Source: Bacillales bacterium (GTDB lineage Bacteria; Bacillota_I; Bacilli_A; RF39; UBA660). Taken from it: 64,000 nt of DNA. Location: contig JAEEZR010000026.1 in assembly GCA_016292035.1 (NCBI GenBank), positions 16,655 through 80,654 on the forward strand, given 5' to 3'. Each line of letters starts with the position of its first letter. The first letter of the stretch is position 1. The notes beneath the pieces are model-generated. The model worked only from the letters and a program-made list of their open reading frames with translations, searched no databases and had not been told where the DNA came from. Positions 43,061 to 46,221 of this stretch are shown one piece after another. The translations under genes were made by a program, and so were the position numbers.

Positions 43061-43260
43061 TCAAGTTTTTTTATTATCATTTCGTAATCTCGTTTTGCAA
43101 GTTCTATATATTTTAGTTTCTTTTAAGTTTTCTAATACTTCTTTATAAGGATGACCATATCGATTTTTCTACCTACGGGTATTAAACAATTAATATATAT
43201 GAGCAGCTGCCATATGATCATAAAACCCATGTGGTGATATACGTTTATGTATACGGTTAG
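43061..43260 (-). pseudogene. decayed, internally deleted and frameshifted copy of the comEC 3' end
   Basis: The minus strand reads RISPHGFYDHMAAA ... VGRK(frameshift)NRYGHPYKEVLENLKETKIYRT. Intact ComEC reads VISHGDYDHMGEA ... VGKNNKYGHPNKEVLNNLENSKIYRT. A 16-nt identical core GTTCTATATATTTTAG occurs at 43101-43116 and 44240-44255. In-frame stops are present. Confidence 0.8.
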
Positions 43261-43296
43261 AATATATATAATTACAAATAGAAATGGTATAAGTTG

Positions 43297-44133
43297 TTAT
43301 AAACCTATACCACTTTTATTATCTTTTTTTATTTCATATTCTCCAACTATATACATTCTCTGTGTACCAGTCTTTTCATATTCTTTACCATTCATATAAT
43401 AGTCGTCAAATGATTTAATCACACCATTATTTACAAAATCCAAGAATTCTTCATTTGTTAAAGCACCTACAAAGGGGTAATATGCTTGAACACTTCCATT
43501 TTCTTTATATGATGCAATTGGGATACTATAATCTAGCAAAGCATAGTCATTTTTTCTCTTAACAATGTTAAAACAATGTCCCTCTTGTTTATCATTCAAA
43601 TCTACACACCCCATGCAATAATATGATTCTGTGTCAAAAATACTTAATACCTGTTGAACCAATGCTCCTCTTTCCGTACATTGAGCTGCTCCTTTACCTT
43701 TTAAATCACCAAGTTTATTATTTTTTAATGCTTTAAAATACTCTTCATCTGTAGTGGTTGTTTGCCATGCGATTTCATTAAATATTGTTTCTCTATCTAC
43801 TTTACCTGGGAATCCAAAATAACTATTAACAAAATATTCTAGATTATGAATTAATGAAGCTTTATTATTAATGTTATACTTTTTAATAAAGTGTGCAAAT
43901 TCATAAATAAAATCTGTACTTTCCATTCCGTAATCTTCCATATTTAAATTAGCATATTTAATTCTAGTTTTAAGTGGTATGAATCCTTTAAATACACTAC
44001 AAGATTTTCCATTATTTAGAAAGCCTAATTTTTCAACTTTTGCTGCATTTGAATTTGCTTCATTTATAGCTGTTTCAATAATTGAATCAACATCTTCTTC
44101 CTTACATTCCATTATCTTTTGAAGTAAATCCAT
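43297..44133 (-). CDS. orphan protein with papain-fold-like Cys-His-Asp arrangement (NAT/transglutaminase-like candidate)
   Basis: GAAQCTERGALVQQVL ... EGHCFNIV ... YALLDYS order and spacing resemble the G.C.E..L / H....V / (L/V)D triads of arylamine N-acetyltransferase or transglutaminase-like enzymes. By eye only. Confidence 0.35.
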   Translation of the reverse strand: MDLLQKIMECKEEDVDSIIETAINEANSNAAKVEKLGFLNNGKSCSVFKGFIPLKTRIKYANLNMEDYGMESTDFIYEFAHFIKKYNINNKASLIHNLEYFVNSYFGFPGKVDRETIFNEIAWQTTTTDEEYFKALKNNKLGDLKGKGAAQCTERGALVQQVLSIFDTESYYCMGCVDLNDKQEGHCFNIVKRKNDYALLDYSIPIASYKENGSVQAYYPFVGALTNEEFLDFVNNGVIKSFDDYYMNGKEYEKTGTQRMYIVGEYEIKKDNKSGIGL

Positions 44134-44169
44134 ATTATATCACCAATTATATTATATCATAGATACTAT

Positions 44170-46221
44170 TTATGAACTACAAGTCTCAATTTTTAATGTG
44201 TTATTCTTAATCTTAAACATAATACTACCATCTTGATCTGTTCTATATATTTTAGAATTTTCTAGATTATTTAATACTTCTTTATTTGGATGACCATACT
44301 TGTTATTCTTTCCAACACTAATAACAGAATAATTAGGTTTTATTTTATCTATAAACTCAATACTTGAACTTGTCCTACTACCATGATGTCCTACTTTTAA
44401 TATATCTATATCTAGTAGATTATATTTACTCATTATTTCTTTTTCAGTAGTAACTCCAGCATCTCCCATAAACATAAATTTATAACCATCAAGTTCTGTA
44501 TAAATAACATTTGAGTTATCATTTTCATTATCATATTCTTTTGTCTGCAAGAAATAAAGTTTGTTATTATCTATATTTAGTTCTTTAATACATGAATAAT
44601 AATTAATCTTCTTTTTATTCAAAACTTTTATTAATTCTTGTTCTAAATCATTATAAGCTCCACAATTAAAGATTACTTTTTCTACCTTGTAGTTTTCGAC
44701 TAAATTAATGGCTTCTCCCATATGATCATAATCACCATGGCTAATTACCAAAAATCTAATAGAACTAATGCCATTCTTTCTTAAAAAAGGAATAGTTTTA
44801 TTAATAGCTATATTAGAATAATTGCTATTTATATTGCCACCAGTATCTATAAGAACAGCTCCCTTACCAGCTGGATACGAAATCAATATACTGTCTCCTT
44901 GAGATACGTCTAAATAAAAAACTTTATAAGAATAATCAAAATAAGGATACATCTTTAAACATAAAGCTAAACCAAATAAAAGAATAAGTAAGTATTTATT
45001 TCTATGCATAGCCAAATAAAGAATCACTAGATACAAAAGAATAAACCATGACGAAAAATGAGGATAATAAACTATTAAATTGCAAAGTGAAAATAACTTA
45101 TTAATTGATAGCAAAACATAAATAACTTTATCATAAATAAATAAAAGGAAAGGAAATAAAAAAGTAAGAAGACTAAGAGGAAAAACAATTAAACTAACAT
45201 AAGGCACCAAAAATATATTAAATATGATTGAAAGCAAGTTAACCTGTCCAAAATAATAAGCAGATAATAAAAAAGTAGTTGCAAATGAAAGAAATGAAAC
45301 AAATATAATGCTTTTAAAATAGCTAGAAGTTCTTTTAGTAAATCTAATTAGAAAGAAAACACTTATGAAAGAAAGTAAAAAAGCACTGTCAAAAAGACCA
45401 TAAGGAAAAATAAATAATGTAATAGAAAAACAGATAAGAAGCATATTGATATTACTTGTTTTTATATCAAAAAGTTCAAATAAAAAAGCTAATATAAAGA
45501 AAAGAACAGCTCTAAATAGAGAAATACTAGATGCATTAATTAAATAAAACATTAGTAAAATAATTGATACTATAAAATATCTTATAGTTTTACGAACATG
45601 AATCTTTCTTAGAAAAAAGAGTAAAAAGGCACTAAAGAAACTAACATGCATGCCAGAAAGAGCTAGCAAATGTGAAACACCATTATCTCTAAATAAATCT
45701 AAATCATCTTTAATCATTTTATTATTACCAAGTATGAAGGCATACATATATGGGTTATTTATTAAACTTGCTCTCTTATATAAATAGTTTTTTAATCTAT
45801 AAAAAAGACTATTACTTCTATTAATAGCAGTAATACTATTAATCTTAATACTAAAGTATACCATTCGAAGTGCTAAATACCTTTTATAATTAAATGCATT
45901 AAAAAAAGTATTAGAGCTTATTTTATCAATATCACCATTGATCTCAATATTGCTGCCATAACTTATATTTTTTTTAAGAAAATCATAATCATCTTTAAAA
46001 TAATAATAGGAGATAACCTTAAATGGGCAAGAAAGCTCCATAGTAAGCCTATCTCCATCAAAATTGTAACTATTTACCTTACAACTATAAGTATTTGACT
46101 TTATAATACTAGCGCTATAATTAAGCCTATAATTTGTTATAACTAATGAATAAATAACAGAAAATAAAATAATTAATATAATAAAAAGCTTAGACTGTAA
46201 TACTGTCTTTAATAGCTTCAT
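44170..46221 (-). CDS. comEC: DNA internalization competence protein ComEC/Rec2
   Basis: Polytopic competence domain plus C-terminal metallo-beta-lactamase domain (DVSQGDSILI, ISHGDYDHMGE, GHHGS, YGHPNKEVL). Confidence 0.9.
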   Translation of the reverse strand: MKLLKTVLQSKLFIILIILFSVIYSLVITNYRLNYSASIIKSNTYSCKVNSYNFDGDRLTMELSCPFKVISYYYFKDDYDFLKKNISYGSNIEINGDIDKISSNTFFNAFNYKRYLALRMVYFSIKINSITAINRSNSLFYRLKNYLYKRASLINNPYMYAFILGNNKMIKDDLDLFRDNGVSHLLALSGMHVSFFSAFLLFFLRKIHVRKTIRYFIVSIILLMFYLINASSISLFRAVLFFILAFLFELFDIKTSNINMLLICFSITLFIFPYGLFDSAFLLSFISVFFLIRFTKRTSSYFKSIIFVSFLSFATTFLLSAYYFGQVNLLSIIFNIFLVPYVSLIVFPLSLLTFLFPFLLFIYDKVIYVLLSINKLFSLCNLIVYYPHFSSWFILLYLVILYLAMHRNKYLLILLFGLALCLKMYPYFDYSYKVFYLDVSQGDSILISYPAGKGAVLIDTGGNINSNYSNIAINKTIPFLRKNGISSIRFLVISHGDYDHMGEAINLVENYKVEKVIFNCGAYNDLEQELIKVLNKKKINYYSCIKELNIDNNKLYFLQTKEYDNENDNSNVIYTELDGYKFMFMGDAGVTTEKEIMSKYNLLDIDILKVGHHGSRTSSSIEFIDKIKPNYSVISVGKNNKYGHPNKEVLNNLENSKIYRTDQDGSIMFKIKNNTLKIETCSS

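Follow-up and report, generated by a model that had tools for sequence, protein, structure and literature searches.

A 64,000-nucleotide stretch of a Bacillales bacterium contig (JAEEZR010000026.1), referred to here as the window, carries the competence gene comEC on its minus strand, followed by the remains of a second comEC 3′ end. In order along that strand there are comEA (46190-46909), comEC (44170-46221), an open reading frame (ORF) of 278 residues (43297-44133) and a spacer of 283 nucleotides. We consider it probable that positions 43055-43258 are the former 3′ end of comEC, displaced when a cassette of about 1.5 kb entered at the CA dinucleotide of the His494 codon, a serine-integrase site. 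The cassette, running from 44739 down to 43232, would comprise a new comEC 3′ end, the 278-residue gene, a terminator hairpin and a 27-nucleotide motif. The locus is one case of a widespread cassette array behind comEC.

The product of comEC contains DUF4131, Competence and metallo-β-lactamase domains (Pfam) within a single membrane protein, which identifies it as ComEC/Rec2. A sequence-only reading of this DNA had claimed a degraded copy of the comEC 3′ end, in the same orientation as the gene and bracketing the 278-residue ORF with it, and this is borne out by three kinds of search. BLASTN of 43000-43300 against comEC (44170-46221) reproduced the reported match of 43101-43159 to 44240-44298, at 49 of 59 nucleotides (E = 8e-14, in a small search space) and including the 16-nucleotide core GTTCTATATATTTTAG; a second, collinear match joins 43207-43231 to 44715-44739 (21 of 25). 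TBLASTN aligned NRYGHPYKEVLENLKETKIYRT with NKYGHPNKEVLNNLENSKIYRT at 16 of 22 residues. A profile of 78 comEC 3′ ends taken from other genomes, run over the window with nhmmer, gave only two matches, one to comEC (44739-44162, E = 1.5e-154) and one to the relic (43191-43100, E = 5e-12), and thus no further copy of the comEC end in the 64 kb. Gene and relic both lie on the minus strand, in direct orientation, with the 278-residue ORF between them. The similarity is real, and is not a chance match. The frameshift and in-frame stops that had been claimed are also present, PVGRK being read in one frame and NRYGHP in another.

The same reading proposed that comEC had received a replacement for its own end from an element entering its 3′ part, and placed the junction of an accessory region at the comEC 3′ end. 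Both proposals are supported by comparison with related bacteria. A scan for ComEC, taking one genome per species, gave 66 loci (numbers prefixed L label loci or contigs, and counts out of 67 include the window) from uncultured low-GC gut Bacilli, whose metagenome-assembled genome (MAG) records say 'Tenericutes', Erysipelotrichaceae or Mycoplasmatota. Full-length ComEC relatives at these loci are just 40-50% identical to the window protein, with one locus reaching 76% in its best segment; many loci match residues ~494-683, additionally or solely, at 55-85% identity. At the nucleotide level, 44170-44739 is 78-88% identical to primary or displaced copies in nearly every related locus, and many of the alignments stop within a few bases of 44739; for the first 1470 nucleotides of comEC, matches are few, short and weak, and come from a handful of loci. 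The last 570 nucleotides of the gene are 84-86% identical to copies in many species. Among 5.8 billion proteins searched, none exceeds 39% identity to residues 1-490 of the protein; scanning metagenomes with the N-terminus yielded no relative, and exact look-up of ComEC and of the 278-residue protein in public assemblies gave no match.

A codon alignment of 41 primary comEC genes from 41 species places a step at about residue 490. Amino acid identity is 0.25-0.5 before it and 0.75-0.84 after it, identity at third codon positions rises from about 0.45 (the background for 27% GC) to 0.65-0.72, and four-fold synonymous identity rises from about 0.48 to about 0.65. The last 190 codons of comEC are therefore a module exchanged horizontally. 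Comparing the divergence of the 3′ end with that of the rest of comEC, a check that the sequence-only reading had suggested, points to a foreign or shared origin for the present end in the window, because of this step together with the limit of 39% on relatives of the N-terminal part.

Displaced ends are common at these loci. In 37 of the 67 there are two to five comEC ends in direct orientation (the primary end and one to four displaced ones), 1.2-5 kb apart, and 84 of the 89 ORFs between copies, which belong to 45 families, are co-oriented with comEC. In the long displaced copies the first codon is that of His494 (CATGG...), and a hairpin, a T-run and one of two motifs, A or B, lie directly upstream. 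Intact copies make up 18 of 33 displaced ends and 43 of 45 primary ends, and early stops are found in 15 of 33 and 2 of 45 respectively, showing that displaced ends decay while the expressed comEC stays intact. The window relic is an advanced case of this decay.

In one respect the sequence-only reading does not hold. It described a single copy with an internal deletion of about 370 nucleotides, and the relic is instead a composite of two repeat classes. Its parts, in order, are a motif foreign to comEC (43258-43232), the head of a long copy (CATGG..., 43231 to about 43203; 25-30 nucleotides), and a comEC end of a 'short' class, which begins after about 28 nucleotides of the long-copy head. 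The short class comprises about the last 58 codons and has a conserved head of its own, TGTACTAACTACTCAATACCA followed by GTTGG. This consensus head is seen upstream of short copies in L001 (13019), L018 (14983), L022 (3014), L041 (13350 and 14220), L051 (6085 and 6575), L053 (4600) and L056 (3360), and in L001 and L056 the 278-residue gene is followed by the short class alone. By analogy, the core CCA-GT-TGG at codon ~632 resembles CCA-CA-TGG at His494, and could possibly mark a second integrase site inside comEC, with the short head as its P arm; a scan for phages carrying that head found no cognate phage. The features of the region are collected in Table 1.

Table 1. Features of the comEC locus, in minus-strand order (positions are those of the 64-kb window)
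Feature	Position	Strand	Basis or remark
comEA, 239 residues, heads the comE operon	46190-46909	-	Pfam SLBB + HHH_3
comEC, intact, 683 residues	44170-46221	-	Pfam DUF4131 + Competence + Lactamase_B
CA of the His494 codon (CAT)	44738-44739	-	putative serine-integrase attB crossover dinucleotide, within the metallo-β-lactamase motif HGDYDH
B′, exchangeable final 190 codons of comEC (replacement end)	44170-44739	-	nucleotide identity to other species
Cargo gene, 278 residues	43297-44133	-	no Pfam domain; family found behind comEC ends
Terminator-like hairpin, overlapping the stop of the 278-residue gene	43282-43315	-	followed by TTTCTATTTG at 43284-43275
27-nucleotide motif AACCGTATACATAAACGTATATCACCA, variant B, read as a serine-integrase attP P half-site	43232-43258	-	motif family
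Head of displaced long copy, CATGGGTTTTATGATCATATGG..., reads HGFYDHM	43203-43231	-	21 of 25 nucleotides to 44715-44739
Degenerate short-class head ATATATTAATTGTTTAATACCC, then GT at 43176-43175	43177-43200	-	short-class consensus
Short-class comEC-end relic, codons ~632-683, with frameshift, stops and small deletion	43055-43176	-	
Promoter-like site TTGAAA-16-TAGAAT with TG, plus ribosome-binding site, ahead of next gene	43037-43064	-	
ORF of 189 residues, first gene past the relic	42444-43013	-	no Pfam, PADLOC or PHROG match

The motifs upstream of the long displaced copies, A (ATTCGACTTACTTTTTGACAATCACCA) and B (ATTCGTATGCATAAACGTATGTCACCA), are both about 27 nucleotides long. Among non-redundant copies their mean pairwise identity is 0.88 for A and 0.80 for B. 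These values exceed both the 0.51-0.54 of third codon positions in the adjacent copy and the 0.45 of the 19 nucleotides further upstream, and so the motif is under constraint, limited to about 27 nucleotides, which is the size of a half-site. In the window, variant B occurs once (43258-43232; none is expected by chance in 64 kb), and motif A has no match. The minus strand reads from the hairpin (43315-43282) through TTTCTATTTG and variant B into the relic head (CATGGG...), and the same order of hairpin, T-run and motif precedes displaced copies at other loci. The two in-frame ATG codons that motif B normally supplies are both ATA in the window. Whether a locus has A or B showed no clean association with the cargo family. 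Three other roles for the motif were considered. A DNA-uptake sequence was rejected on its single occurrence in 64 kb and a Xer/dif-like site on sequence, and a promoter in motif A (TTGACA-N16-TATGAT) was dropped, motif B having none.

The origin of the motif is indicated by phages. A scan of viral contigs for the exact pattern of motif A found two contigs of one phage (L077 and L078). In L078, motif A forms the left half of an imperfect palindrome of 56 bp, ATTCGACTTACTTTTTGACAATCACCA-CA-TGGAGGTATGTGGTTAGTAAGTCGAAT, with symmetry in the outer 12 bp and the inner ACC, which is the form of a palindromic attP of about 50 bp. The gene directly before this site (473 residues, 3540-4961) encodes a large serine recombinase, as its Resolvase, Recombinase and Zn_ribbon_recom domains show, and beside it is a CI-like repressor; on the sister contig L077 there are tail genes of a siphovirus, together with a lysin, a methyltransferase and GmrSD. 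Four further phages have integrases 65-73% identical and the same architecture around CCA-CA-TGG, with different arms. Homologues of the recombinase were found in L079-L084 and L086-L094, and in the phages the recombinase gene lies beside the site. In L081 and L084, the terminator hairpin of the lysin gene and a T-run stand directly before the P arm, as they do before the motif in the arrays. Motif A is identical to the P arm of the phage L078/L080 at 27 of 27 positions. By hand count, the motif B consensus matches the P arm of L081 at 18 of 27 positions and that of L083 at 16 of 27, and the motif B variants of the species represented by L067-L076 match the L081 arm at 20 of 27. A guess at the motif B phage based on the palindrome found nothing in viral contigs, and in metagenomes only an unrelated perfect hairpin (L085).

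In the integrated state, as seen in public assemblies, the integrase gene and a comEC cut down to 480-513 residues are arranged tail-to-tail, and comEA comes next. The truncated gene keeps DUF4131 and Competence and has lost most of the β-lactamase domain. One integrase (P0393) is found in this arrangement in six host backgrounds (L087-L092) and another (P0391) in a seventh (L086), giving at least seven in total. The attL junctions, in L079 and L086-L092, consist of the P′ arm, TG, and the reverse complement of comEC codons (...D-Y-L-I-x-T/S), and the host (B) arm of L087 is identical to that of the L067-L076 species. Junctions of the attR type, a P arm followed by CATGG..., are found in the arrays, and in the window at 43258-43230, with the same dinucleotide. 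Comparison of these junctions makes His494 the predicted attB of these temperate siphoviruses and their large serine recombinase; integration at its CA disrupts comEC. Because the motif is a variant of an attP half and the phages sit at the CA of His494, each pairing of motif and displaced end can be read as an attR-type junction (P-CA-B′), and the junction in the window as an attR-type scar. A search for att-like repeats had been suggested by the sequence-only reading, and the 27-nucleotide motif beside the relic, of the same family as the P half-site of serine-phage attP, answers to it. The motif, the link to an integrase and the array across the lineage formed no part of that reading, which is to this extent incomplete.

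The arrays are more than old prophages. To the left of each cassette, comEC continues past His494 into a complete and different 3′ end, and there is no P′ arm; on the right side are the P arm and the previous comEC end. The window has no serine recombinase gene in its 64 kb, and no recombinase was found in its array or in the other arrays examined, except for a small element on L049. There a third type of junction occurs, and a partial serine recombinase, with 30% identity to the L078 enzyme, and two helix-turn-helix genes lie 2.3 kb from the junction, which is at the same codon.

The cassettes have no recombinase and would be moved in trans by phage integrase. A possible route begins with a phage integrating ahead of an existing array. 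Excision through the distal attR would then pick up a cassette, the phage would enter the chromosome of a new host through its own attP, and on leaving through the proximal attR it would leave behind the cassette and a re-completed comEC. These four steps would need canonical reactions only. Spread and reshuffling could afterwards take place through homologous recombination between the 570-bp repeats. Overall, this would amount to a gene-capture platform behind comEC, with comEC kept whole and its last 190 codons homogenised between species. A role for the integrase beyond a single ancient event is suggested because the half-site alone is strongly conserved and because several integrase lineages have left their own arms.

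In a related species, insertion can be followed from strain to strain. Ten of its contigs (L067-L076) share the comEC 5′ part and differ in the array behind it, and within 8 kb there is no recombinase, apart from an insertion sequence (IS) transposase in some. L075 has at His494 an extra unit of 2.4 kb, consisting of a new end, a YhcG gene, a gene of 285 residues, a hairpin and motif B. Upstream of His494, L075 and L067 are 94-100% identical per 100-nucleotide window, mostly 97-100%, and past it identity falls to about 78%; the former end of L075 and everything downstream lie behind the cassette, at 98.7% identity to L067. The first ~100 nucleotides compared of the displaced copy in L075 are identical to the primary end of L069, L073 and L074. 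The repeats are thus longer than 30 bp (570 bp), the relative has a single copy, and the insert has no mobility gene (L075 against L067 and L073), as in insertion with long target duplication. In L069 the cargo is swapped relative to L067 between matching flanks, both 98.6-99.6% identical. The strain comparison that the sequence-only reading had asked for thus shows insertion polymorphism in this related species; for the species of the window itself, no second genome was found.

Several observations weigh against the displacement of the former end by an integrase at the CA. The new end of L075 shares its first 52 nucleotides with the resident end, and in the species of L067 three different heads of about 35 nucleotides are found on otherwise identical bodies. 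Because of the shared start and the interchangeable heads, the crossover may lie within the repeat, which would mean homologous recombination instead of integrase action at the CA. The phage scans found no cognate phage for the variant B of the window, the related arms matching at only 16-20 of 27 nucleotides. No phage contig in IMG/VR carries a comEC 3′ end, and the cargo and island proteins are without homologues in the phage loci. Canonical phage serine integrases are not known to recombine a site of the attR type with attB, so that the first cassette would require a rare event that the proposed route leaves unexplained.

A stronger form of the integrase explanation is possible, and we put it forward tentatively. 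Here the locus would be an integron-like capture array behind comEC, run in trans by phage large serine recombinases, the phages shuttling cassettes from species to species and repairing comEC on leaving. The crossover would bound the cassette on both sides; besides a selected attP half-site and candidate defence cargo, for example YhcG/PDC-S02 and DinD, the cassette would hold a spare end for the nuclease domain of ComEC.

The main rival for the spread of the cassettes is homologous recombination alone, following natural transformation. A segment of comEC end, cargo and comEC end would recombine with, and duplicate, the resident end, the motif being the passive scar of an old phage. Such recombination clearly acts as well, to judge from the 52-nucleotide shared start, the three heads, and a window comEC end that is about equally distant (84-86%) from many copies while its cargo gene is 91-92% identical to its relatives. 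The swap of cargo between allelic flanks, the absence of a recombinase in or near the arrays, and repeats of 570 bp, much longer than an integrase requires, are also what it would lead one to expect, and the process has been described for restriction-modification genes, with most cases coming from naturally competent species (PMC2853133). It leaves unaccounted for, however, the fixed boundary and the selected half-site. The motif is far better conserved than neutral sites, over the length of the half-site only; the two motif variants and the L049 junction type each match a distinct integrase lineage; and the long displaced copies start at the crossover dinucleotide. Furthermore, the cassettes cross species, yet the 5′ parts of comEC offer almost no nucleotide homology on the left-hand side. 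As the whole explanation we regard recombination as rather unlikely.

The extra copies might alternatively be silent cassettes, serving to vary the ComEC nuclease domain by gene conversion in the manner of pilin or toxin-tip orphan modules, or be expressed as proteins of 183-196 residues. Many copies are indeed intact ORFs from Met500 or from an in-frame ATG of motif B, the mosaic heads indicate that gene conversion happens, and motif A together with the HGDYDH codons gives TTGACA-N16-TATGAT. We nevertheless think this very improbable, given the excess of early stops in displaced over primary copies, the mutation of both motif B ATG codons in the window and the fact that the copies differ mostly at synonymous sites (amino acid identity 0.75-0.84); moreover, a domain starting at the second metal-binding motif would presumably be without the first strands of the fold. 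The sequence-only reading had also allowed that the comEC 3′ region was duplicated locally in tandem before the 278-residue gene was inserted and one copy decayed, and although the copies are direct repeats 1 kb apart, this can hardly be right when they are just 83% identical over 59 nucleotides, a phage half-site stands at the 5′ edge of the relic, the 278-residue gene has a comEC end ahead of it and a short relic behind it in other species (91-92% nucleotide identity), and the expressed end is much closer to other species than is the remainder of comEC.

Two cargo families are the commonest in the arrays, with members usually directly behind a copy. YhcG/DUF1016 nucleases of the PD-(D/E)XK type make up one (22 ORFs; Pfam PF06250 and PF17761), and they match the PADLOC candidate defence family PDC-S02 (E = 2e-61). 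DinD/Bro-N proteins account for 18 ORFs, some with a NUDIX fusion. Both the YhcG and DinD families occur within type I restriction loci (PMC9881135). That YhcG might act as a homing endonuclease was considered and dropped, since it would leave the duplications and the half-site unexplained.

The 278-residue gene of the window represents a third family of this kind, and has relatives of 91-92% nucleotide identity in L001, L056 and L067-L076, always behind a comEC end and with a short relic after it. Its family is widespread (409 matches in one search, 390 representative clusters in another) and has invariant Cys152, His186 and Asp201. The protein has no Pfam domain and no sequence match in the PDB; remote members of the family give weak matches to Transglut_core and Gln_amidase, and the fold is possibly transglutaminase- or papain-like. 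An AlphaFold (AF2) model has a predicted local distance difference test (pLDDT) score of 49.7, too poor for a fold search.

Past the relic, the intergenic stretch with the promoter-like site at 43037-43064 is conserved in L001 and L056. The 189-residue ORF that follows (42444-43013) and a 191-residue ORF (39196-39771, minus strand) are paralogues, both starting M..YTI(D/E)(Y/C)(C/Y)K..K.KP.I, with no database family. Because their homologues lie directly behind comEC copies in L001, L056 and L064, this family is probably another typical first cassette gene. Between the relic region and secDF (31412-33610) there are ten further co-oriented ORFs (33964-42361), with essentially no match in Pfam, NCBIfam, PADLOC or PHROG; the exceptions are a 182-residue ORF (39878-40426), weakly Doc/Fic-like, and a 784-residue ORF with a TolA-like low-complexity region. 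PHROG and PADLOC searches with the island proteins of the window were likewise essentially empty. A 316-residue ORF (37560-38510, minus strand) has an internal tandem duplication with a unit of about 150 residues, YN(Y/F)T.YY...EERIKA..DDIL.EYPNLG..., and the 180-residue ORF beside it (38555-39097, minus strand) seems to be internally repeated too; no family match was obtained for either. No further comEC copies or motifs were found in 33964-42361, and nothing there marks a far boundary of the accessory region. No compositional break was detected in the window. At about 14 kb, within ~13000-15000, GC skew passes from positive to negative and gene orientation from plus to minus, the pattern expected at a replication terminus.

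Some further observations concern the phages and the assemblies. In L093 (7436-7600) and L094 (7436-7606), integrase P0393 abuts only an ORF of 54-56 residues, in place of comEC and comEA, amid unrelated genes (ClpP, RhuM, UvrB/UvrA). This ORF has a β-lactamase-fold match in L093, with no match recorded in L094, and the site may be a secondary one or an orphaned left arm of comEC. Two of the phages that target comEC have a reverse transcriptase beside the tail-assembly chaperone (L081, 10140-11198; L084, 9844-10902), which looks like a diversity-generating retroelement near the tail genes. Contigs end inside comEC 3′ copies at L047, L048, L050-L052, L056-L058, L062 and L064-L066, and many contigs with the 278-residue gene are only about 1 kb long. 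Because many MAG contigs begin or end in a comEC 3′ copy, the 570-bp repeat shared across species evidently breaks short-read assemblies, disrupting metagenome assembly at comEC in these taxa.

The arrays join three themes: a competence gene as a phage landing site, lineage-wide stacks of small cassettes without a recombinase, and horizontal replacement, across species, of part of a gene essential for transformation. They are a rich, unannotated source of candidate defence genes, and they provide a test case for the conflict between mobile elements and transformation, in which a host gene is repeatedly broken and re-completed. Serine integrases are in wide use for genome engineering, and if a phage integrase does move the cassettes, the arrays would provide a compact example from nature of how these enzymes can stack genes serially and site-specifically.

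Phage integration in competence genes, stacking of the kind seen in the staphylococcal cassette chromosome (SCC), and insertion with long target duplication are each already known. Listeria phages of the A118 type integrate in comK. The targeting of competence genes by mobile elements, with transformation blocked as a result, is an established theme (PMC4774983, PMC12637031). Phi1207.3, Tn1207.3 and Phi10394.4 are serine-recombinase prophages in streptococcal comEC, and Phi1207.3 integrates at a dinucleotide inside the gene (PMC4260502). The phages described here are of this type, being temperate, with a large serine recombinase, a fixed dinucleotide within a coding sequence and a disrupted gene in the lysogen. 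They differ in the site, the CA of His494 in the metallo-β-lactamase motif, and in the hosts, uncultured low-GC gut Bacilli or Mycoplasmatota, and above all in the presence of stacked cassettes without an integrase, which carry a replacement end of 570 bp and leave comEC intact.

SCCmec and other SCC elements, which use Ccr recombinases at the 3′ end of rlmH, similarly treat the 3′ end of a housekeeping gene as a serine-recombinase landing pad, and share tandem stacking, a repeat of the site bounding each element and the lack of a recombinase in many elements. In SCC the repeats measure about 15-20 bp, and no more than the last codons are restored. The replacement in comEC spans 190 codons, the recombinase is encoded by a phage and is not linked to the array, with no Ccr-type serine recombinase in the window or the arrays examined (the small element on L049 apart), and each unit is 1.2-5 kb long and holds from one to a few genes. 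Defence genes are reported among the cargo of SCC islands as well (bioRxiv 10.1101/2023.03.17.533233). Insertion with long target duplication, described by Nobusato, Furuta and Kobayashi mostly from competent bacteria, with an empty site in relatives (PMC2853133), resembles the arrays in that the genes are small and of an accessory or defence type, the flanking direct repeats of the target are long, and the insert has no mobility gene. It differs in that here one target is reused over dozens of species, with a 5′ boundary fixed at the integrase crossover and a conserved half-site; in place of repeats at variable positions, the long copies have a fixed start codon and the short class a second fixed point.

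The likeness to integron arrays lies in co-oriented, promoterless-looking single-gene cassettes behind one insertion point, each ending in a conserved recombination element, and L075 suggests that the newest cassette is the proximal one. Unlike integrons, there is no IntI-type tyrosine integrase domain among the genes flanking the arrays (the window and L067-L076) and no attC hairpin, the conserved element being a 27-nucleotide serine attP half and the upstream hairpins varying in sequence; and the cassette carries part of a host gene. Transducing elements of the lambda-bio type have a hybrid P-B′ site and host DNA from the right of attB, and in the accretion of cis-mobilizable elements (CIMEs) with integrative and conjugative elements (ICEs), att-bounded non-autonomous units are mobilised by the recombinase of a helper; both involve tyrosine recombinases. 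The cassettes behind comEC likewise combine a hybrid P-B′ site with host DNA and are att-bounded and non-autonomous, but they are of the serine type and contain no phage DNA past the half-site. If the integron-like explanation is true, these non-autonomous serine-integrase cassettes would constitute a new class, and the conflict between phages and transformation would have an outcome of a new kind.

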